This document shows positions 3,089 to 51,392 of a stretch of DNA of 64,000 bases, one piece after another. Both the position numbers and the translations under genes were made by a program. A model generated the notes under the pieces. It saw nothing but the letters and a program-made list of their open reading frames with translations. It was not told the origin of the DNA and did no database searches. Position 1 is the first letter of the stretch. Every line of letters begins with the position of its first letter. Origin of the DNA: a virus; the IMG/VR virus record IMGVR_UViG_3300025276_000026, positions 1-64,000 of that record. One strand, 5' to 3'.

Positions 3089-3164
3089 TGGTGGAGCTGA
3101 TAGGGTTCGAACCTACGACATCCACGTTGCAAACGTGGCGCTCTCCCAACTGAGCTACAGCCCC
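3089..3164 (-). tRNA. tRNA-Ala (UGC)
   Basis: GGGGCTGTAGCTCAGTTGGGAGAGC...TTTGCAA...GGTTCGAACC...CAGCTCCACCA cloverleaf with encoded CCA. Confidence 0.97.
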
Positions 3165-8667: not shown

Positions 8668-8744
8668 TGGTACAACCGACAGGACTTGAACCTGTAACCT
8701 ACTGCTTAGAAGGCAGTTGCTCTATCCAGTTGAGCTACGATTGT
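8668..8744 (-). tRNA. tRNA-Arg (UCU)
   Basis: ACAATCGTAGCTCAACTGGATAGAGCAACTGCCTTCTAAGCAGT...GGTTCAAGTCC...GTTGTACCA. Confidence 0.96.
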
Positions 8745-19495: not shown

Positions 19496-19571
19496 TGGAG
19501 CTCCCAGTCTGATTCGAACAGACCACCTAATGCTTACAAAGCATTTGCTCTACCGAATGAGCTATGGGAGC
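19496..19571 (-). tRNA. tRNA-Thr (UGU)
   Basis: GCTCCCATAGCTCATTCGGTAGAGCAAATGCTTTGTAAGCATT...GTTCGAATC...GGGAGCTCCA. Confidence 0.95.
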
Positions 19572-35922: not shown

Positions 35923-38415
35923 TTATCCAAAAAACGCATCAAGCGACGCAACTGGTTCAACATTCCAGCCAATCTTCTCAATAACCACCTTCAATGGTTC
36001 TATGAATGACTTGTCAAATTGCATGTCGTAGTTGATATATTTGTGTAATTCCAACTCTCTCGGAAGTACATTCAAGAACGATATGACGTTCTCGTTAATT
36101 GGGTTAGGTGTTGTGAGGTATGTGAAGTGTAACTTCTCTCCACTCTTAATCAACTCGTAACGTTTGTGTATGTTCTTCTTCTTGAGATGATGGTTGTAAA
36201 GTAAAGCACCGCGTACGTGTATGGGTGTACCCTTTCCGTAAATCATCGATGGGTCTGCATACTGTTGTAGATTGTTGCAACCTCTTGGTGATGACATGTC
36301 TTCGGGTGGTAACCTTCTGAAGTCCATACGAGCATTCTCTACGAAATCCCATAGTTCTTGTTCGTCACCTTGCATCACAATCTTGAATGCATCCGTAAGT
36401 CTACCTCTAACCCATTGTGGTGTACTAGACTTTGCAGTCTCAATACCCATCATCTTGAGTTTAGGTACGGCTAGTCGGACTCCTTCGTTGTCGATGACGT
36501 TGAGGATATATCTTTTCTTTGCTGTCCATATTCCTCTGTCGGCGATGACCTCTCGTCCCATCTCCATTTTTTGTTCGTATGCGTTGGTGTATTCTGCAAG
36601 GTCTTCGAAACCTTTTTCAAGAACGCTCTCCATGTGTGACTTGGCGATGGAGTCGATGAAGTTAGTGATTTTGGTTTTATCTGTTTCATTGGGCATGACC
36701 TGTTGTATCAATTTGTCTAGTGTAATATAAACAGAATCAGTATCCATTGCAACAACATAATCTTCGTCTGTCTTTAGAGTTGTGTTTAACCAATCATTGA
36801 TTGTCTTCTCTGCATGTTTGATAATCAACTGACCCGACAATGTGATTGCCTCGGCAAGTTGTGGGTCAAAGAATGCAAAGTATTGATTGGCCAATGCACC
36901 ATAAGCTGAGTTAAGTGCAATCTTTCTAACCTGTTGGTTATTGTAAGAACGTTTGATTAATGTATTGAGTTCGTTCTTACGTGTCTTGTCTTTACAAGTT
37001 TGCAGTTCCTTCTGATACTCAATCATCTTACCCTTCCACATCTTACGTTCGTCATAGAACTTCTGCATAAGTTCGGGAAGGAAACCTTGTTTGTCGTTAG
37101 AGAACCTAGCACCGTTTGGTGTGATACCGAATGCACCGTCAACTACTGTTTCTTTGTTGAATAGTTTCTCTACGGATGTATCTGTTAGTCCTCTCTGCAT
37201 CTTCTCGGGTGAGATGTTGTACTGCATAATGATGTGAGGATACAGTGAGTTTAAATCGAATGAGACAACCCATTCATGTTTACCCACGATAGGTTCTTTA
37301 ACATATGCACCTTGAATCCTGTCACCTTTTATCTGACCAAGTCTCTGAGGTGGTGTAGCAATGTTCTGTTCTTTAAGGAAGTTGTAGATGATTGTTTCCC
37401 AATACTTAACCATACCAAATGTATCATTGTAGTTACATTTTGCATTGTAAGACATTGCAAGAATCAATTCCATCAATCCTAGTTTGTCTTCTAAGTCTTC
37501 TACCAAGGTAACATCCTTTACATTATATGCAAGGAACTTAGAATAGTTGTTTCTGTATAGATGGTGAAGAGAACCTTCCTCTTCATAGCTTATCTTGGTC
37601 TTACCTAACTCTACCTTTGCAATATGGTCTAGTCTGTAAGACTCTTGGTTTACGAATGTATGTTTTTTGTATAGTTCTAGGTAATCAATTACATTGATTC
37701 CGTACAGATTAAAAACCTGTTGCTGAGAACCCCAATTGGTTTTGAATTCTCTGACATCGCACATGTTCCATGGTGAGAACTTTTTGTGTGATTCTGTACC
37801 AAAGACTCTGTCCACACGATTACACAAATAAGTAATGTCAAAAGTATTAACATTCCAACCTGTGATGATATCGAACTTCTCTTTTCTCCAGTACTTGATA
37901 AACTGTTCAAGTAAGTCTTTTTCATCCTGTGCTTCATGATAAGTCACATTCGCTGGTTTTTCATCCCATGGGCCGATACCAAAAGTATGTGCCATGAATC
38001 TGAAGGGTTTGATTGTTATTGCATTGACCTTTTCCAAAGCTTGCATAGGTTCGGGGAACCCATCTTCACATTCACACTCAATGTCGAGTGTTGCAATCTT
38101 GATTACTTTGGGGTCGTATTTGATGTCACCTTGAAACTTGTCGGCAATGTAGGTGTAGATATATCTATCATAACCATGAATGTCCATTCCAGCAGTTCCT
38201 GCGAACTTCTCTCGGAACTTCCTTGCACCACCCATTGAATTTAGGTTCACTGGTTCTAGGTTTCTACCATCCAATGACTTGAATGCAGAGTCCTTTTTAG
38301 TCGGGACGTAATGAGTTGGACGGTAATCCACAGACATTTGCACCTGTTTCTTACCTTGGTAACCCTTTACGAGTATCTTGTCGCGTGTACGACATACGTT
38401 TGTATAAAAATCCAT
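35923..38415 (-). CDS. gp43: family B DNA polymerase (T4 gp43-like)
   Basis: exonuclease DIEC, SFDLNSLYP, KIALNSAYG, DTDS, KKRY. Confidence 0.98.
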   Translation of the reverse strand: MDFYTNVCRTRDKILVKGYQGKKQVQMSVDYRPTHYVPTKKDSAFKSLDGRNLEPVNLNSMGGARKFREKFAGTAGMDIHGYDRYIYTYIADKFQGDIKYDPKVIKIATLDIECECEDGFPEPMQALEKVNAITIKPFRFMAHTFGIGPWDEKPANVTYHEAQDEKDLLEQFIKYWRKEKFDIITGWNVNTFDITYLCNRVDRVFGTESHKKFSPWNMCDVREFKTNWGSQQQVFNLYGINVIDYLELYKKHTFVNQESYRLDHIAKVELGKTKISYEEEGSLHHLYRNNYSKFLAYNVKDVTLVEDLEDKLGLMELILAMSYNAKCNYNDTFGMVKYWETIIYNFLKEQNIATPPQRLGQIKGDRIQGAYVKEPIVGKHEWVVSFDLNSLYPHIIMQYNISPEKMQRGLTDTSVEKLFNKETVVDGAFGITPNGARFSNDKQGFLPELMQKFYDERKMWKGKMIEYQKELQTCKDKTRKNELNTLIKRSYNNQQVRKIALNSAYGALANQYFAFFDPQLAEAITLSGQLIIKHAEKTINDWLNTTLKTDEDYVVAMDTDSVYITLDKLIQQVMPNETDKTKITNFIDSIAKSHMESVLEKGFEDLAEYTNAYEQKMEMGREVIADRGIWTAKKRYILNVIDNEGVRLAVPKLKMMGIETAKSSTPQWVRGRLTDAFKIVMQGDEQELWDFVENARMDFRRLPPEDMSSPRGCNNLQQYADPSMIYGKGTPIHVRGALLYNHHLKKKNIHKRYELIKSGEKLHFTYLTTPNPINENVISFLNVLPRELELHKYINYDMQFDKSFIEPLKVVIEKIGWNVEPVASLDAFFG

Positions 38416-43576: not shown

Positions 43577-44101
43577 CTAAAGATTTTTCAATATATTTTC
43601 AGGGCTTGAAACTTCATAAGGGTCGGACTCTGCATTATCAGTGTATCCTTCTTCAATGAATGCTTTTTCAATTACACCATCGTTAACAACGACTGCATAT
43701 CTCCAAGACCTATATCCGAAACCAAGATTTGATTTAGAACATTCTGCACCAATCAAATGTGTGAACTCACCATTACCATCGGGTAGTGGGTAAACATTCT
43801 TGATACCTAATGATTCAAACCATGTGTTCATAACGAATGTATCGTTAACTGAAACACAATAAATCTCATCGATTCCTTTTGCTCTGAACTCTTCGAATTT
43901 CTCTTCAAAGCCAGGCAGTTGTTGTGTAGAACATGTTGGTGTGAATGCGCCAGGCAATCCAAATATGATTACTCTTTTACCAGCAAACTGTTCTTTAGTG
44001 TCTAGTGATACAAACTCACCGTCAATTCTCTGAGGTATAATTACTTCGGGAACTGTTGTAGTCCCTTCGATAATTTCTAATCCCATTGTTACTTCTGTCA
44101 T
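43577..44101 (-). CDS. peroxiredoxin (Prx5-type)
   Basis: PGAFTPTCS, CVSVND, PDGNGEF, RSWRY. Confidence 0.95.
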   Translation of the reverse strand: MTEVTMGLEIIEGTTTVPEVIIPQRIDGEFVSLDTKEQFAGKRVIIFGLPGAFTPTCSTQQLPGFEEKFEEFRAKGIDEIYCVSVNDTFVMNTWFESLGIKNVYPLPDGNGEFTHLIGAECSKSNLGFGYRSWRYAVVVNDGVIEKAFIEEGYTDNAESDPYEVSSPENILKNL

Positions 44102-44132
44102 AATCTATACTCCATAATAAATAGATACACCC

Positions 44133-44161
44133 ATTGTAACATCAATGAGTATATCTTTCAA
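44133..44161 (-). promoter_or_regulatory. sigma70-type promoter
   Basis: TTGAAA-N17-TACAAT. Confidence 0.55.
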
Positions 44162-44170
44162 GGGGGTTTC

Positions 44171-44608
44171 TTAAGAAATTTTGATTTCTTGAGGTTTATC
44201 TTCTTCGGGTATAATCCTTTCTAAAGACACACTCAAAATACCATTCTTCATGTCTGCACCTTTAACGACAATGTCGTCTGCAAGTGTGAATGTTCTTTTG
44301 AATGAACGAGATGCAAGTCCTCTATGGACATACTCAAGTTCTTCTCCACCCTTTTGTTTACCTTCGATAAGAAGTACATTTTTCTCTTTTGAGATTGTGA
44401 TATCTTTCTTATCAAATCCAGCCAGTGCAAGTTCGATACTGAAGTTCTCTGCATCGTGTTTTACAATATTGTAAGGTGGATAGTTTGTATTAGTCGGTGA
44501 CTGATTGGCACGTTCTAATAGTTGAAGAGTTCTGTCGAACCCGATTGCGAATGGGAATTCTTTCCCGAAATTGAAGATGTCGAAATCTCCGAGCTGTTTA
44601 CTTGTCAT
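44171..44608 (-). CDS. small heat shock protein (Hsp20/IbpA-like)
   Basis: IGFDR, NYPPYNI, ELALAGF, HRGLASRSFKRTF, NGIL, IPEE. Confidence 0.96.
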   Translation of the reverse strand: MTSKQLGDFDIFNFGKEFPFAIGFDRTLQLLERANQSPTNTNYPPYNIVKHDAENFSIELALAGFDKKDITISKEKNVLLIEGKQKGGEELEYVHRGLASRSFKRTFTLADDIVVKGADMKNGILSVSLERIIPEEDKPQEIKIS

Positions 44609-44664
44609 AGTGTTTCTCCTTTATTAAGCAAGTTATGTTATGTAACCCCTAATGGGCATTACAA
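44609..44664 (-). ncRNA. ROSE-like RNA thermometer in hsp20 leader
   Basis: CUUGCUU-AAUA-AAGGAG pairs the UUGCU motif with the SD (bulged G); upstream hairpin UGUAAUGCCC-AUUA-GGGGUUACA. Confidence 0.6.
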
Positions 44665-44667
44665 TAG

Positions 44668-44707
44668 TATTTATAGCATATATGGGGACGAATTTAAAAA
44701 CTTCAAG
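44668..44707 (-). promoter_or_regulatory. sigma32 (RpoH) promoter followed by a T4 late promoter
   Basis: CTTGAA-N14-CCCCATAT (44680-44707), then TATAAATA (44668-44675). Confidence 0.8.
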
Positions 44708-46580
44708 TCTTTTTAAGTAATCTAGTTTTACCATCGAATAATGGTGCATAGATTTTGACTGGTATCTCCTTACCTTTAACCTTGATTTCGTCGATGAACT
44801 TCCAGTCAATATCGATTTGGTCTTTGGTAAACTCTGAGAATAGAATTGGAGTATCGTATTGTCTAGTCTGAACTTCAAGTCTGGCTGCAAGGTTGACTGC
44901 ATCACCGACCACTGAGTAATCGAACCTAAGTTCTGACCCCATATTACCTACGATACATGGGCCTGTGTTGACCCCTGTGCCGATTACAACTGGTGGTAGG
45001 TCTAATCCTTCCTCTACAATATCCTTATTCATCTGTTCAGTAAGTATCTCTATTTCCATTGCAGTTCTGATAGCCATCTCTGCATGGTTCGGACAATCCA
45101 AAGGAGCATTCCAAAATGCCATTAGACAATCGCCCATATATTTGTCGACGGTTCCACCGTTCTTGATTACTATCTTAGTCATACCATCGAGGAATCTATT
45201 GATGAGTAGGACTAATCCCTCGGGGTCATCGTTTTTCATGTAAGCTTCACTGATTGGAGTGAATCCTACGATGTCTGCGAAGAGGAATGAAAGTTCCTTT
45301 CTGTCTCCACCTAATCGTAATTTAGAGGGGTCTTTTTGTAGCTCTTCAATCATGTCGGGAGATAAATACTTTTGGAACTGCTTCTTGATTTGTTGCTTTT
45401 CTTGGAAAGTCACATAGTATTTGTTAAACGAAGCATGACCGAAAACTACTAAGGAGGCCAACGATGAAAAGAAGGTATCGAAAAGAACGAGCTCTGAAGT
45501 CCAAATATAATAACTCCCGCCAATCTGGCATACTACAAGTAATAGAAACCCTGTCCCCGAAAGAACTGTGGGAAGCTTGTAAACCATCGCAAGTATCATT
45601 AGCAAAACTATCAGAAGAAGAGCAGTCTCTAGTGATTCAAGATAGTAGGATTGTTGTATTTGAACTCCTGTCAAAACGGTTTGAAGCAGGTTCGCTTGCA
45701 CTTCGTGGGGATACATTACACCCCTTGGGGTTGAAACTGGATTATTCAAACCCTCTGCGGTTAGACCCCATACAAGTATTTTATTCTCAACATTAGAATC
45801 GGGTAAGTCTACAGCAGAAATCCTTTGGAAAGTGTTCCAATAGGATATCATTACGTCACTGGTTGGAGTGGTGGTTATCGGTTTGTCTCTTCCCATCCGA
45901 ACCCACTCCACTCCAGTCTCGGGTGTGATTCTAGTTTGATAACTTGGTTGTTCTCTAAGGGCTCTTAAAGCTTCTAACATTAGTGAGGGGTACACTTCAC
46001 CGTTTGCCGTAACCAATAGTGGTACAGACCGCGTGGTACCGTCAAAATTGGGTGTTCCAGTGACCGCTGGGGTAGCCGTCACAACTCCAACTCCATAGGT
46101 GTTACTCATCAAAATTTCAATCGGACTAACAATCCCATCGAAGTTCCATAGAAAATCTTTAGGTTCCCCACCCCCAAACGTTGAGTTACCAACAAATGGT
46201 GCAGAACCTTTTTGAGTTTGTGAGGTTGGAGCAGCTCCGAGTATTGTGAGACGGTTTACTAATCCTTCTGCGAATACCGCGTCTTGTGTTGGGTCTCTAT
46301 CGGGTTTTGAAAATAGCATACCAAAAATATGAGTGTTGCTATAATGGGTATTAAGAAGCAAGTCACGATAAATCCCACGACGAATAGGATACTGTCCGTA
46401 AGTTTCAAGAGATTTTTCGTCAATGTCGACGAGAATGATGTTATCGACATAGAATTCTTCCTGTTGTTGGTGTAAGTAATCGAACCATGACCATGATATG
46501 TTCTCTATAAAATATGGGTTCCATATCTTAAGTGCAAAGAGAGCTAGTATAGTTACTAATACTGTTTTCCAAGTATACAT
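44703..46580 (-). CDS. CHASE2-domain class III adenylate cyclase
   Basis: ILVDIDEKSL..YGQYP (CHASE2), TPRGVMYPHEVQAN, three TMs, FADIVGFT, VDKYMGD, RFDYSVVGDAVNLAARLE, VKGK. Confidence 0.95.
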   Translation of the reverse strand: MYTWKTVLVTILALFALKIWNPYFIENISWSWFDYLHQQQEEFYVDNIILVDIDEKSLETYGQYPIRRGIYRDLLLNTHYSNTHIFGMLFSKPDRDPTQDAVFAEGLVNRLTILGAAPTSQTQKGSAPFVGNSTFGGGEPKDFLWNFDGIVSPIEILMSNTYGVGVVTATPAVTGTPNFDGTTRSVPLLVTANGEVYPSLMLEALRALREQPSYQTRITPETGVEWVRMGRDKPITTTPTSDVMISYWNTFQRISAVDLPDSNVENKILVWGLTAEGLNNPVSTPRGVMYPHEVQANLLQTVLTGVQIQQSYYLESLETALLLIVLLMILAMVYKLPTVLSGTGFLLLVVCQIGGSYYIWTSELVLFDTFFSSLASLVVFGHASFNKYYVTFQEKQQIKKQFQKYLSPDMIEELQKDPSKLRLGGDRKELSFLFADIVGFTPISEAYMKNDDPEGLVLLINRFLDGMTKIVIKNGGTVDKYMGDCLMAFWNAPLDCPNHAEMAIRTAMEIEILTEQMNKDIVEEGLDLPPVVIGTGVNTGPCIVGNMGSELRFDYSVVGDAVNLAARLEVQTRQYDTPILFSEFTKDQIDIDWKFIDEIKVKGKEIPVKIYAPLFDGKTRLLKKT

Positions 46581-47384
46581 CTAGTTTTGTGTGACTGATA
46601 TATTACAACCACCTGCTGTTTGACAACTTTGAGTTAGTGTATAGTTTTGTACGCTATTACTTTGTTGAGTTAGATTTATGTTAGTTGAGTATGTTCCTGT
46701 TAGGGTTATGTTTGCGTTATGAGCTCCTGAACCACTTTGGGATATAGTACCTGTATTACCATCAACATATGATTTTAATGAAAGAGTTTTCTTTCCATCT
46801 GTTTCTTGGACTACATAAAATGAATTATCGTCTGCATACAAGTATACTGTAGCATCATGTTCTGAATAGGCATTATTGTTACCATTTCTTTGATACCCTG
46901 CTAATGCATTATTACTACCGTGGATATCTAGAGTAAGTGTCACTCCACCACCTTCATCACCGTCACTAGTAAATGTAGTATCGGATGACCCACTTAAAGT
47001 AACACCTTGACCCCATCGAACAGAATTACTGTCACCCAAGATATGAAAATCTATATTTGATTCTTTACATGAAGAACCCCTAGTGCAATTTTGTTCAAAG
47101 TGAAGTGAATTGGAATCACCATTTAAGTCTCCACCCGAACCTTGTTGAGTACCCCAAGTAGGAACAAAGGAAATAAAATTCTTGTTTCCTGTTTGTTTGA
47201 TTAGTATTTGATTTGATGCACCACCTAGTGAAAAGATAGTGTCGTTGTTGAACCCAATTTGAGTTACATTGAAGACAAGATTGTCATTGGACTGACTCCC
47301 TGTCGTTTCCACATCAACCTTGTTGTTATCGTTTGCGACAACAAACAAGGGTAACATAATTAATAATGATAAAAACTTTTTCAT
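46581..47384 (-). CDS. curlin-like secreted beta-solenoid protein
   Basis: signal peptide; repeats VTQIGFNN, IKQTGNKN, ISQSGSGAHN; Asn/Gln/Gly-rich. Confidence 0.7.
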   Translation of the reverse strand: MKKFLSLLIMLPLFVVANDNNKVDVETTGSQSNDNLVFNVTQIGFNNDTIFSLGGASNQILIKQTGNKNFISFVPTWGTQQGSGGDLNGDSNSLHFEQNCTRGSSCKESNIDFHILGDSNSVRWGQGVTLSGSSDTTFTSDGDEGGGVTLTLDIHGSNNALAGYQRNGNNNAYSEHDATVYLYADDNSFYVVQETDGKKTLSLKSYVDGNTGTISQSGSGAHNANITLTGTYSTNINLTQQSNSVQNYTLTQSCQTAGGCNISVTQN

Positions 47385-47391
47385 AATCCTT

Positions 47392-47538
47392 TTAGATTAA
47401 CCATTGAAACAATAAGCATAAAATAACTCCTTCAGAAAATGATAACCAATACATATGGTAATCATCTAGTCGCATAGCTTTTTGAAATCCAAAGATTTGG
47501 TTCTCATGCCATACACGGAATTTTTCTGATATGTTCAT
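47392..47538 (-). CDS. 48-aa membrane peptide inside the curli operon
   Basis: hand-read MNISEKFRVWHENQIFGFQKAMRLDDYHMYWLSFSEGVILCLLFQWLI; SD AGGAG. Confidence 0.7.
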   Translation of the reverse strand: MNISEKFRVWHENQIFGFQKAMRLDDYHMYWLSFSEGVILCLLFQWLI

Positions 47539-47546
47539 ATATTCTC

Positions 47547-48686
47547 CTAGTTTGTTTGTGTGATGGTAATATTTAGAGACGAACCATCACCCACCTGTAT
47601 TGATGACTCTTTTTCGTCTGTTATGGTTCTAATGGATGCTTGTGCAAACATCGGTAACTTAATAGATATAATTCCATTAACTTCCCTGTAGAACCATATT
47701 TGACCAAGACCCTTGTCTACAATAGTAGAATATTGTGTGTCTTTGTCAAAGCCTGGCAGAGTTCCGTCAATACGAACCACTCCGAAGGCATTAGATTGTT
47801 GTCTGTCGAGACCAACCTTACGGTCAATGTCTAAAACTACATCTAATAAATCTTGTAAGAAATCGACATCAAGTAAATCTCTGTCGAGCTCTGTGTATTC
47901 TAACTCATCATCTTCAAAGTACTGTTCTTCCAAGTCATTAAACTCTAGGAAGTCCACGTCAAGAACGTTACTTGTATCGTTCTCTTTACTACTCTGTTCT
48001 TCTGCAACCTGTTTGTTCACCTCTTCGGGTGGACTGACAATGAATAAGTTGTCAATCAAGTTGGGTGTAATTCCATTAACCACTATTGGTTTAGTTGGTG
48101 AATCATCGTATGTAGAAACCATTGTTGCTTGATACGCTTCATCCAATAATACCTGTCCGCCTGCATTACTAACTAGGATACTTCCCGAAGGAGCTCCCCA
48201 TTTATCGGGTAGCAGTATCACAAGTGACCTTCCGATTTCATCAATAGATGTTGTGAAGTCGGTGCCGTTAACTGTTATCTGTGCAGTCGGTGTAGTTATA
48301 TTTATGTTAGCTTTCTTAATCTTTCCACCAAAACCCGAAGCAAATCGAGCGGTGCCTTGTGCCATACGAATGGCCATCTTGGACTTTGAAGGGTCGGGGT
48401 CATAGTAAACCTCGTCTATCCATACCTTTGAATGTTCTGTTAAATCCAGTTGTTCCGTACCTTGGAATTGGATTTTCATTCTGCCGTTCTGAGTCTGTGC
48501 TGTATCATACATCAGCACATCGGATTCATCTGTTGCAGATATCACGGAAGTTTCTCCGTCTCTCTGAAGACCAGCTGAACCCTTGTATTCGATAATCTGA
48601 CCTATCGGTTCACCATATGATAGTGAACTGATAAGTAAGAGATTAACTATCGTTGTCGTCTTTCTGAATAATGTCGATGTTAGCAT
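47547..48686 (-). CDS. FecR-domain periplasmic protein
   Basis: signal-like N-terminus; DTAQTQNGR..I.F, LTEHSKVWID, GTARFASG, TPTAQITVNGTDF. Confidence 0.88.
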   Translation of the reverse strand: MLTSTLFRKTTTIVNLLLISSLSYGEPIGQIIEYKGSAGLQRDGETSVISATDESDVLMYDTAQTQNGRMKIQFQGTEQLDLTEHSKVWIDEVYYDPDPSKSKMAIRMAQGTARFASGFGGKIKKANINITTPTAQITVNGTDFTTSIDEIGRSLVILLPDKWGAPSGSILVSNAGGQVLLDEAYQATMVSTYDDSPTKPIVVNGITPNLIDNLFIVSPPEEVNKQVAEEQSSKENDTSNVLDVDFLEFNDLEEQYFEDDELEYTELDRDLLDVDFLQDLLDVVLDIDRKVGLDRQQSNAFGVVRIDGTLPGFDKDTQYSTIVDKGLGQIWFYREVNGIISIKLPMFAQASIRTITDEKESSIQVGDGSSLNITITQTN

Positions 48687-49374
48687 TAGAGGTCACAAAT
48701 GATACGTCAATGATACCACTACAAGATTGACCACTCGGACAACTTGTATCTGAACCACTCTTCTGAATGATATCAATATCATTGCCTGAACCAGTTAAGA
48801 TTGCAGTGATTTTATTATCAGTCGCGTCAGCTTGAATGGTATTAATGTCGTTTGATGAACCACTTACAGTCCAGTTCCAAACAGCATTATCCGAATCAAC
48901 TTTGGTTGTGAATACGTTACTTGAACCACCTACTACTAAGTCCCAGTTTAAGTATTCTGCTGATGCAGTGTAACCGACATCTATATCAAACGTGTTAGAT
49001 GAACCTGTTACAGCACCTGCCATGTTTAAGTTGTCTGCACTACCTTGATAACCTATGTTCCAATCCATTGAGTTCGAACCACCAGTAAATGTTAAATTTA
49101 CTGTTGAACTATCTGCAATGAAAGGGCCGTATAGTTTGTTGACATCACCAAATTGTACTAGTGTGAAACTGTTGTTTGCACCAGTAAGAATCATGTCAGC
49201 AGATGTTCCCGAGAAATTATCTAAACCGACTTTGTTTCCGTAACCTTTCTGAGTGAAGTTCAACGTTAGGGCTGTACCACTTTGTTGTAACCATATTTCG
49301 TTATCGTCTGCTCCTGCAAATGCAGTAGTCGATAATCCTAATGTTAACATAATCAATAATAATTTATTCTTCAT
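48643..49374 (-). CDS. curlin-like secreted protein (CsgA/CsgB-like)
   Basis: signal peptide; DNEIWLQQSG, FTQKGYGN, VQFGDVN, repeated G.SN motifs. Confidence 0.72.
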   Translation of the reverse strand: MKNKLLLIMLTLGLSTTAFAGADDNEIWLQQSGTALTLNFTQKGYGNKVGLDNFSGTSADMILTGANNSFTLVQFGDVNKLYGPFIADSSTVNLTFTGGSNSMDWNIGYQGSADNLNMAGAVTGSSNTFDIDVGYTASAEYLNWDLVVGGSSNVFTTKVDSDNAVWNWTVSGSSNDINTIQADATDNKITAILTGSGNDIDIIQKSGSDTSCPSGQSCSGIIDVSFVTSNANIDIIQKDDNDS

Positions 49375-50272
49375 GTTTTTCTCCTATTGAATGTAACTCG
49401 TTTCTTCCATGTGTTCCATGGGGGTGACGATGTTCATCTTTAATTACCCAAAAACTTCTATCGTGTCCTTGGTATATTAGTTCTAGAACGGCAAGTTCAA
49501 TTGCTGAACGTGTTGCTTTCGTAACACCTTCATTTTCTGCTCTGCCATCTTCCATTTCAATTAACTTCGTATCCATATCAACGAAGCGGAATACATCATA
49601 ACCACCACCTGTACTTAGAATCGTTTTCTGAGTCTGTACATTCAGTAAAATCTCACCAGTTAAAGTTGATATTCCTCTCAACGATACGGTGATAACATCC
49701 CTACGATATGAAATAGAACTGCCAATACCTAAGTATCTTGCGCCTCTTCCACCGCTTTCGATGTTCGAATCATAACCAATAATCCCACCTTCCAGTAGGA
49801 TTCCTGCGAAGAGCAAGGGTTGAATTCCTGTTGGGGAACCCTCATTACCTTCCTGTTCTGCAAAACTTTCTCTAGTAGAACGAATGATTTGACGCTCTCT
49901 TACTAGTGCATCTAAACTTGTTCTCTCTACTACTCTAAACCATTTACCCTTCCCTGCTGTCTTAAGTGCATCAATCAAAAATGATTCAGCTCCTTGTGTG
50001 ACTGCAGTGGAGAAAGATGCAATTCCATCTTTACTCTTACGTTGTCCTGTCTTATCCATGAAAGCGTAGACTGCAACGACTGGCATTACATCTGCTGGTG
50101 GTAACAGTAACAACTCTTTATAAGTAGGTATATTTACTACTTCTGCCTTCTCAATGCACTCACCCACCTTACTCATTACAAGAGAGGTGCAACTGTCGGT
50201 CATAGACGGAATACTTGCACACCCAGTGGTGAACAAGACCGTTATCAGTCCTATAATTGCCCATTGCTTCAT
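49364..50272 (-). CDS. csgG: curli secretion channel lipoprotein CsgG
   Basis: lipobox TTGC; VAVYAFMDKTGQRK, FSTAVTQG, WFRVVER, LVRERQIIR, EGGIIGYDSN, GGRGARYLGIG. Confidence 0.95.
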   Translation of the reverse strand: MKQWAIIGLITVLFTTGCASIPSMTDSCTSLVMSKVGECIEKAEVVNIPTYKELLLLPPADVMPVVAVYAFMDKTGQRKSKDGIASFSTAVTQGAESFLIDALKTAGKGKWFRVVERTSLDALVRERQIIRSTRESFAEQEGNEGSPTGIQPLLFAGILLEGGIIGYDSNIESGGRGARYLGIGSSISYRRDVITVSLRGISTLTGEILLNVQTQKTILSTGGGYDVFRFVDMDTKLIEMEDGRAENEGVTKATRSAIELAVLELIYQGHDRSFWVIKDEHRHPHGTHGRNELHSIGEKHEE

Positions 50273-50767
50273 TTAGAAACTTCCTGTACCAACTGGTATA
50301 TCTAAAATCGTTGTTGTCCCATCCTCGGTCACTATCGTTAATCGAATGAAGTCTACTCCATCCTCTCCAGTCATCCTTTCATATGTGACTGTATTACCTT
50401 CCATTACGAAAGTACCGTAGGCAGCTGCTGTTCCGTTAGAGAACATGTTCTCTACTAACTGTTTTGCTAACTGAGCATAAATTCTGCTCTCTACGTTTCT
50501 TAAAAATTTTGCAAGTGTTGTGTTCTGTGCTTCTCTGTCTGCCTTTGCAATGGCATCTTCTAAATCTTGTTTTATCTTATCACGTCTAGACTTCTCTTGA
50601 TTTTCTATAGTCAAATAGTGAGCAGATATCCCTATCCCATTAAAGGATGGACTCTTAAACTTGTGTACTATCTCGTCTGCATTGGCATAGTTGATACCAA
50701 GACCACATGCTGTTACCAACATTATTAGTCTTACAACGTGCAATTTACTTTCTATTTTTCTCAACAT
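50273..50767 (-). CDS. csgF: curli assembly component CsgF (true start probably near 50722-50743)
   Basis: signal peptide then EIVHKFKSPSFNG; FLRNVESRIYAQLAKQL; C-terminal GTTTILDIP; adjacent to csgG. Confidence 0.88.
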   Translation of the reverse strand: MLRKIESKLHVVRLIMLVTACGLGINYANADEIVHKFKSPSFNGIGISAHYLTIENQEKSRRDKIKQDLEDAIAKADREAQNTTLAKFLRNVESRIYAQLAKQLVENMFSNGTAAAYGTFVMEGNTVTYERMTGEDGVDFIRLTIVTEDGTTTILDIPVGTGSF

Positions 50768-51020
50768 TCTGTGACTCCTGCTTCTTGCTGTTCTCTTTCA
50801 TTTCGAGAACCACATTTACTTTCTGCTGTAAACGGATTAAATCTTGGTCTAACATTCTGACTTGGTCAATAACTTTAATCAATGCAAAATGCTGTTTCTC
50901 TATCTCGGGTTCTAGTTTTTCACCTACGAACCACCAAATAAAATATATGAAATATCCTAGACCCACCATCATTACAATTGGGAATCCGTAATCAGATATT
51001 ACTTGAACGAGACCTTCCAT
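50745..51020 (-). CDS. small membrane protein (TM + coiled coil)
   Basis: YGFPIVMMVGLGYFIYFIW TM; LIKVIDQVRMLDQDLIRL. Confidence 0.75.
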   Translation of the reverse strand: MEGLVQVISDYGFPIVMMVGLGYFIYFIWWFVGEKLEPEIEKQHFALIKVIDQVRMLDQDLIRLQQKVNVVLEMKENSKKQESQNVEKNRK

Positions 51021-51317
51021 TTAGTCTCTCCTTACATCTAGTTTACCGTCTTCTATAAAGTTCTCTGCTCTTGCAACCCTGTCTATATCGGGTCTAAGTT
51101 CTAACGCTGCAGAGACTAGTAAATCTATCTTAATCATTTCATTGGACATTGTTCTTGCACGATTCTCTAGGGATGTACAGAACATTGTAAGGGTTTTGAT
51201 ATCATCAACAACACCTTCAAGTATTTGTTTTATGACAAGGAATATGAAAAAGCCCATTACTAAACTTCCAGCAATCGGAGCTCCCACTTCACCTATCAAT
51301 ACAAATATATCATTCAT
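51021..51317 (-). CDS. small membrane protein (TM + coiled coil), similar to its neighbour
   Basis: VGAPIAGSLVMGFFIFLVI TM; LENRARTMSNEMIKID. Confidence 0.75.
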   Translation of the reverse strand: MNDIFVLIGEVGAPIAGSLVMGFFIFLVIKQILEGVVDDIKTLTMFCTSLENRARTMSNEMIKIDLLVSAALELRPDIDRVARAENFIEDGKLDVRRD

Positions 51318-51322
51318 GCATT

Positions 51323-51330
51323 TATTTATG
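51323..51330 (-). promoter_or_regulatory. T4-type late promoter heading the curli/cyclase operon
   Basis: CATAAATA a few nt before the ATG at 51317, downstream of a terminator. Confidence 0.55.
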
Positions 51331-51363: not shown

Positions 51364-51392
51364 AAAAAAAAGAGACGTTTCCATCTCTTTTT
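51364..51392 (-). terminator. rho-independent terminator
   Basis: AGAGATG-GAAA-CGTCTCT hairpin followed by a T-run. Confidence 0.85.

Follow-up and report, generated by a model that had tools for sequence, protein, structure and literature searches.

A curli-type secretion cassette in an uncultured marine T4-like phage: CsgF, CsgG and two curlin homologues interleaved with a FecR-domain protein and a CHASE2 adenylate cyclase, a candidate envelope-sensing system

Curli-type secretion genes are known from several marine phages. Genes for CsgF and CsgG were described by Zaragoza-Solas et al. (2020; PMC7029224) and Buchholz et al. (2022; PMC9004378), neither of which mentions a cyclase or a FecR protein, and the whole type VIII secretion system (T8SS) block was found in pelagiphage Podoviridae and Myoviridae by Wittmers et al. 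(2022; PMC9599517), in the order one or two “histidine kinases,” CsgF, CsgG, CsgA/B, FecR, a second CsgA/B, and adenylate cyclase. The locus considered here lies in a 64,000 nt stretch (“the window”), positions 1 to 64,000 of the 97-kb IMG/VR record IMGVR_UViG_3300025276_000026, and is an intact, probably late-expressed copy of this cassette in an uncultured marine T4-like phage. With moderate confidence, we read it as a copy of the published cassette encoding a late-expressed curli channel and fiber, together with a FecR/CHASE2 envelope sensor that would make cyclic AMP (cAMP). An initial annotation of the window had noted that csgF and csgG are reported from some marine T4-like phages, which is correct; FecR, the second curlin, and the cyclase have also been published already (PMC9599517). 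To the known block are added here a firmer curlin identity, the recognition of FecR and CHASE2 as a bacterial sensor pair, the finding that the “histidine kinase” label is unsupported, and a conserved terminator and promoter-like box upstream.

Several points from the earlier work bear on what follows. The phylogenies of Wittmers et al. (PMC9599517) point to Alphaproteobacteria, and the authors remark that the FecR, histidine kinase, and adenylate cyclase genes do not belong to bacterial curli operons. The block was present at all 65 GOV2.0 stations, with metatranscript evidence, and podoviral versions often had neither the cyclase nor the second curlin. FecR was read as an iron regulator and CHASE2 was not mentioned. 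In bacteria, a FecR-domain protein and a CHASE2 adenylate cyclase cluster together in Campylobacterota (PMC9239204); the Burkholderia “BiofilmReg” system is composed of a LysM-FecR protein and a CHASE2 kinase (PMC5192318); and Sinorhizobium meliloti has CHASE2 cyclases (CyaD1) as well as a FecR-domain target of Clr, SMc02177 (PMC5498481). FecR plus CHASE2 as a recurrent bacterial sensor pair went unrecognized in the phage papers.

The cassette consists of nine open reading frames (ORFs) on the minus strand at 44703-51317, as given by the ORF list and translations, so the nine tightly packed genes of the initial annotation are all in place. Neighbors abut or overlap by 0-44 nt. The gene order is tm1, tm2, csgF, csgG, cur1, fecR, pep48 (an ORF of 48 amino acids, aa), cur2, and cyclase, and in the interleaved stretch from cur1 through fecR, pep48, and cur2 to the cyclase the junctions are overlaps or gaps of at most 8 nt. 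In a Pfam profile search of the cassette proteins, judged against the curated cut-offs, five domains or families scored above threshold (CsgF, CsgG, FecR, CHASE2, and Guanylate_cyc), and the CsgF, CsgG, FecR, and CHASE2-cyclase identities proposed from the sequence therefore hold. Apart from the two curlin-like proteins and the 48-aa ORF, every member was assigned to a PHROG of unknown function; relatives of most of them are thus already present in sequenced phages.

Co-occurrence was examined with the window proteins as tblastn queries; the targets were 80 IMG/VR loci that the cyclase had retrieved, together with Pelagibacter phage HTVC008M (KC465899) and Methylophilales phage Melnitz (MZ577097). 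Wherever a related locus extends far enough upstream (about 45 IMG/VR loci and both cultured phages), it has the same genes in the same order, co-linear with the published T8SS cassette. The window has its Myoviridae form, with the second curlin and the cyclase. This order holds even though identity between the cassette proteins and their HTVC008M and Melnitz counterparts is only 33-50%, and both curlin homologues are retained in all relatives. The initial annotation coupled FecR and the cyclase to csgF and csgG, and in related genomes their co-occurrence is strict. A search of 50,697 GenBank phage records for CsgG homologues found them only in HTVC008M, Melnitz strains, and a 1.5-kb Salmonella phage record that has no annotation.

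The bacterial counterparts are arranged differently. The 80 closest bacterial cyclases are 30-35% identical to the phage one, mostly from Alphaproteobacteria, and of the same architecture. A FecR-domain gene is found near 21 of them, in several cases directly 5' and on the same strand, but no csgF, csgG, or curlin gene was found within 10 kb of any of the 80. Conversely, none of the seven csgFG loci sampled from Alphaproteobacteria has a gene for FecR, a CHASE2 cyclase, or tm1/tm2 within 10 kb, in contrast to the phage cassette. In other respects these curli loci resemble it, with csgF followed by csgG, adjacent genes with Curlin_rpt domains, and no csgE, csgD, or csgC. The bacterial FecR and CHASE2 pairs also have their phage-like features, namely a secreted FecR-fold protein beside a sensor in which a transmembrane (TM) helix, the CHASE2 domain, and three further TM helices (TM-CHASE2-3TM) precede a cytoplasmic output. 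In these pairs the FecR protein is commonly either short, with the FecR domain only, or a giant FecR-cadherin-RTX protein, and none is associated with curli genes, whereas the phage fecR is separated from the cyclase by a curlin gene and a small ORF. The cassette joins two alphaproteobacterial-type modules, a curli export and fiber set and an envelope sensor pair, that are kept apart in the bacteria sampled. Given the recurrent bacterial pairing, a periplasm-to-cytoplasm sensor is a reasonable reading for the FecR and CHASE2 proteins. A direct search with FecR returned over 7,000 relatives, mostly from close phage relatives and uninformative on bacteria.

Among the alphaproteobacterial CHASE2 cyclases, some adjoin genes for giant FecR proteins of 977-2522 aa, in which an N-terminal FecR domain is followed by cadherin-like, Big_9, and RTX repeats (L101:5335-9888, L092:2201-9769, and L138:18046-20979). 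FecR-CHASE2 pairs would thus seem to be linked, in many cases, to secreted adhesin-like proteins.

The CsgG homologue (302 aa; 49364-50272) matches PF03783 at 161.5 bits (cut-off 20.8) and E. coli CsgG structures with an expectation value (E) of 1e-44 over residues 48-280, with the constriction-loop FSTAV kept. Its N-terminus carries a lipobox-like TTGC, from which lipidation is predicted. Identity is 44-49% to alphaproteobacterial CsgG and 42-43% to gammaproteobacterial CsgG (five gammaproteobacterial matches). The CsgF homologue (164 aa; 50273-50767) has a signal-peptide-like N-terminus and matches PF10614 at 49 bits (cut-off 25.8; E 9e-13) and phrog_35372 at E 2e-38; among solved CsgF chains there was no direct sequence match. 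Its gene is directly 5' of csgG, as in alphaproteobacterial curli loci.

The two putative fiber subunits were identified through family profiles. The protein cur1 (243 aa; 48643-49374) is a secreted curlin homologue with about eight repeats of about 22 aa, carrying Q-x-G-x-G-N and TG-x-SN motifs; 23 aligned relatives have the signal peptide, a near-invariant mature N-terminus (DDNE), and about eight repeats. Compared with the PDB, the cur1-family profile had a single match below E 0.1, to E. coli CsgA (8enq) at E 4.8e-4. The second secreted homologue, cur2 (267 aa; 46581-47384), gave a hidden Markov model (HMM) that matches bacterial Curlin_rpt proteins down to E 8e-11. The cur1 and cur2 HMMs together match ORFs adjacent to csgFG in six of the seven alphaproteobacterial curli loci, and all nine of these ORFs are Curlin_rpt-positive, well above the cut-off. 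The two phage proteins are paralogous, a cur1 search recovering the cur2 of two relatives (L052 and L066). An AlphaFold2 (AF2) model of cur1, with a predicted local distance difference test (pLDDT) score of 74, is predicted to be an all-beta solenoid. Its best fold matches by VIA-align are generic parallel beta-helices (Z up to 16), and Foldseek with the same model found nothing at E<=0.001; the modeled fold would thus support a beta-solenoid and not a curlin specifically. Taken by their profiles, cur1 and cur2 are curlin homologues, and may form amyloid. Their identity is firmer than before, given the CsgA profile match and the Curlin_rpt proteins beside bacterial csgFG.

Among the cassette members, cur2 is the most variable, with 27-78% identity (apart from one 100% fragment) and lengths of 188-341 aa in relatives. 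The FecR and cyclase proteins encoded on either side of it hold 45-94% identity among relatives. The variability would fit diversifying selection on a surface-exposed subunit.

The FecR-domain protein (379 aa; 47547-48686) has a signal peptide, a FecR beta-sandwich at about residues 28-200, an acidic linker, and a small C-terminal beta region. PF04773 matches residues 62-152 at 38.5 bits (cut-off 24). In the AF2 model, the N-terminal domain (pLDDT about 80-86) matches the C-terminal cell-surface signaling domain of PupR (6ovk; E 7.6e-4, root mean square deviation 3.0, 153 columns), and the N-terminal half also matches a Bacteroides anti-sigma factor fold. Model confidence is low for the linker and C-terminal beta region, and the atlas yielded no usable match for the C-terminal half. 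The periplasmic FecR-domain fold is therefore held in common with the FecR/PupR anti-sigma regulators of TonB-dependent cell-surface signaling. Those regulators, however, have an N-terminal anti-sigma domain, a TM helix, and FecI/FecA or PupB partners, while the phage protein lacks both a cytoplasmic anti-sigma part and a membrane-spanning segment, and there are no genes for a FecI sigma factor or a FecA/PupB transducer inside the cassette (only the cassette was examined for these). With a signal peptide in place of the anti-sigma domain and TM helix, it is not a FecR-type regulator, and would work like a periplasmic protein-binding module, outside the FecR/PupR regulatory family.

The C-terminal strands of cur1 (I-Q-I-N-Q-K-D..NDS), cur2 (GGC-x-V-x-V-T-Q-x), and FecR (I-x-I-x-I-x-Q-x-N, here ...ITITQTN) are similar, and the shared motif is also retained in HTVC008M and Melnitz. 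It was considered as a sign of FecR-curlin homology and rejected, as profile comparisons were not significant: aligning the FecR and cur1 family profiles with hhalign gave a probability of 1.6%, and a search of the FecR family with the curlin HMMs was empty at E<=10. The common strand could be one for docking or export.

The last gene of the cassette encodes a CHASE2-3TM-class III adenylate cyclase (625 aa; 44703-46580). CHASE2 (PF05226) matches residues 10-330 at 102.7 bits (cut-off 26.3) and Guanylate_cyc (PF00211) scores 58.4 bits (cut-off 21.9). Hydrophobic segments at about residues 7-25, 311-354, and 364-382 give the arrangement TM-CHASE2-3TM-cyclase, a topology that would place the CHASE2 sensor domain on the periplasmic side. 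Against solved bacterial class III adenylate cyclases, the catalytic domain scores E 5e-31 to 1e-25. Residues D436, K480, D484, R552, S556, N563, and R567 are invariant in 22 relatives, and the metal Asp pair D436/D484, K480, R552, N563, and R567 align with solved adenylate cyclases. The initial annotation had listed the metal-binding Asp residues, the Lys, and the N..AR motif, all of which are kept, and also an ATP-selecting Asp in the sequence FDY. This last residue was misassigned. The residue at the substrate-specifying position is instead Ser556, opposite the Thr of OaPAC “DYT” in the alignment; we take it, by CyaC numbering, to be the position of the class IIIb substrate-specifying Thr. 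Lys with Ser/Thr is compatible with ATP, which would be the substrate.

The start of the cassette has features of its own. A terminator had been placed at 51364-51392, and by folding energy and z-score it is real: the minus-strand hairpin GAGAUG-GAAA-CGUCUC, between an A-run and a U-run, has a folding free energy of -14.9 kcal/mol (z -3.9 against shuffles) and would be the intrinsic terminator of the upstream gene. Folding was used because the terminator/promoter scanner overlooked this hairpin, whose stem takes up the T-run. An equivalent hairpin and T-run are found 5' of the cassette in most relatives. Between it and the first gene is a T4-type late-promoter-like box, cATAAATA (51323-51329, minus strand), 5 nt before the ATG of tm1. 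A TATAAATA-like box was taken as the criterion for a T4-type late promoter, and in 17 of 22 distinct relatives the ATAAATA box is exactly at -12 from the tm1 ATG, with variable flanks, each time preceded by a GC hairpin and T-run. The conserved box behind a hairpin gives comparative support for a terminator followed by a putative T4-type late promoter. The late-type box of the initial annotation thus gains a conserved position, and its activity as a promoter is what we infer from that. ATAAATA occurs 23 times in the window, where 19.6 copies would be expected, and so shows no overall enrichment. Of these copies, 21 are on the minus (coding) strand, and an exact TATAAATA is located at 44668-44675, between the cyclase stop codon and hsp20.

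Under the reading favored here, the nine genes would be transcribed as one unit from the late-type promoter. CsgG and CsgF would build an outer-membrane channel, through which Sec-exported curlins would pass out and polymerize on the infected cell; the FecR-fold protein would report the state of the envelope or fiber to the periplasmic CHASE2 domain, and CHASE2 would in turn set cAMP synthesis in the cytoplasm. The initial annotation had gone further and proposed a complete circuit in which secreted curlin is sensed. The gene identities, operon, co-occurrence, and bacterial FecR-CHASE2 precedent behind that proposal hold up well, while curlin sensing itself stays conjectural.

A number of observations weigh against this reading. 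The evidence for curlin sensing through FecR and CHASE2 is solely that the genes are adjacent. The Pfam Curlin_rpt cut-off (PF07012, 20.7 bits) is not reached by either subunit, cur1 having no match and cur2 scoring 14 bits (E 0.05), so “curlin-like” stands on the profile homology and not at the Pfam threshold. As the initial annotation had noted for the window, there is no csgE: a CsgE-type gate was not found anywhere in the 97-kb record, in a search that gave a signal in a control genome (CsgD was not searched for). Melnitz-infected cells were not seen to clump (Buchholz et al., PMC9004378). A transcript from the putative ATAAATA promoter would be almost leaderless. The Melnitz cyclase (L002:8983-11034) has an Asp at the Ser556 position and a Ser for the transition-state Asn563, and is about 70 aa longer at its C-terminus; given these residue changes cyclase activity or product may differ between lineages. 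Finally, no cNMP_binding domain was found in this record, in the complete genomes of HTVC008M and Melnitz, or in three relatives of 124-135 kb, and thus no phage-encoded reader for the cAMP was found in these genomes. A predicted complex of FecR residues 26-225 and CHASE2 residues 22-318, made with alignments, scored 0.00 and is evidence neither way on their contact.

A more specific version of the signaling step can be imagined, in which the C-terminal strand of FecR, resembling half a curlin repeat (phi-x-phi-x-phi-x-Q-x-N), docks on the curlin fiber or on CsgF. Fiber assembly, load, or surface contact, be it with a second cell or with a superinfecting phage, would in that case be passed from FecR to CHASE2 and on to cAMP. 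We regard this as a speculative and rather improbable elaboration. If it were true, FecR-linked fiber sensing would be a surface-contact sensor built by the phage, tuning the end of infection.

The most serious alternative is that the two modules are merely co-located, with CHASE2 and FecR sensing some envelope or environmental cue so that cAMP reprograms host metabolism, and the curli genes serving separately for aggregation or exclusion. The separation of csgF/csgG/curlin from FecR/cyclase in the bacteria sampled (80 cyclases and seven csgFG loci, within 10 kb) is what would be expected of independent modules, as is the frequent lack of the cyclase and second curlin in the podoviral versions (PMC9599517). 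The phage gene order is harder to reconcile with independence. In it the curlin genes alternate with fecR and the cyclase, an order kept down to 33-50% identity, and at its C-terminus FecR carries a strand motif like that of the curlins. On balance independent modules seem unlikely, though not negligibly so.

A second alternative involves the two small proteins at the head of the cassette. The first, tm1 (98 aa; 51021-51317), has an N-terminal hydrophobic segment (residues 3-38) and a predicted coiled coil, and matches phrog_18771 at E 1e-23; its paralogue tm2 (91 aa; 50745-51020) matches the same family at E 2e-25. The initial annotation's two similar TM/coiled-coil proteins are borne out by the hydrophobic segment and by this paralogy, which is weak (BLASTP E 2e-6, 19% identity). 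Neither matches a Pfam family even at E<=10. The atlas neighbors of tm1 are viral hypothetical proteins only, with holin-like families merely as weak leads, and tm2 weakly matches a holin PHROG over 20 residues (E 0.0017). The two are among the best-conserved cassette proteins, tm1 being 50% and tm2 40-43% identical to the HTVC008M and Melnitz counterparts. The “histidine kinase” label given to them (PMC9599517) is unsupported, at lengths of 98 and 91 aa and with no HisKA or HATPase_c signal at E<=10.

Buchholz et al. (2022) suggested that CsgG and CsgF act as a gated, pinholin- or secretin-like pore in lysis timing; with tm1 and tm2 as holin-like partners, no fibers would be made. The late-type look of the promoter, the weak holin leads for tm1 and tm2, the lack of clumping with Melnitz, and the absence of CsgE could all be read this way. 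The holin resemblances are, however, below any significance level, and two curlins with signal peptides and conserved repeats, kept in all relatives, argue for a real secreted substrate. By its established topology CsgG is an outer-membrane protein. On its own it could not depolarize the inner membrane, and a lysis pore appears distinctly unlikely.

Wittmers et al. (2022) suggested instead that FecR, the “histidine kinase,” and the cyclase regulate expression of the cassette, as a substitute for CsgD possibly tied to iron. The co-inheritance of these genes with the T8SS genes is consistent with this, and an influence of cAMP-CRP on csgD is known from E. coli (cited in PMC9599517). The FecR protein, however, lacks an anti-sigma domain and TM segment and has no FecI or FecA gene beside it in the cassette, and the kinase assignment falls on proteins of 91-98 aa with no kinase-domain signal. 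The supposed regulators are also in the same predicted late transcript as their targets, so that transcriptional feedback in the course of a single lytic cycle is improbable, and we consider this explanation very doubtful. Ungated E. coli CsgG is leaky to small solutes, and in the absence of a CsgE gate the phage channel might likewise stand open. Import of nutrients or cofactors into the infected cell through such a channel (Zaragoza-Solas et al., 2020; Wittmers et al., 2022) would leave two conserved curlins, CsgF, FecR, and the cyclase unexplained, and is highly improbable.

The remaining cassette ORF, pep48 (47392-47538), is of uncertain status. It has a hydrophobic C-terminal tail and no Pfam or PHROG match, and by tblastn it is present in roughly half of the relatives, at 31-82% identity and always between fecR and cur2. 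The initial annotation called it a membrane peptide of 48 aa; the ORF is there, and the membrane part is weak, the hydrophobicity of its C-terminus being below the threshold used. Past the other end of the cassette, hsp20 (44171-44608) comes after the cyclase in nearly all relatives, usually followed by a peroxiredoxin gene (window 43577-44675). Elsewhere in the window are three minus-strand tRNA genes: Ala-TGC (3089-3164), Arg-TCT (8668-8744), and Thr-TGT (19496-19571). No cultured phage has a DNA polymerase more than 48% identical to the gp43-type enzyme encoded here (35923-38415), whose best matches are in Synechococcus cyanomyophages and not HTVC008M, and both the phage lineage and its host are therefore uncertain.

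The advance made here is incremental, since the block itself was already published. It consists of a sharper hypothesis, the FecR-CHASE2 sensor pair, and two annotation corrections, among them that of the “histidine kinase” label. With FecR and CHASE2 seen as a standard bacterial envelope-sensor pair and not as an iron regulator beside a generic cyclase, a vague label of “regulatory genes” becomes a hypothesis that can be tested. The cassette is abundant in the ocean, and judging from its genes it may give hosts that lack curli a new surface structure.

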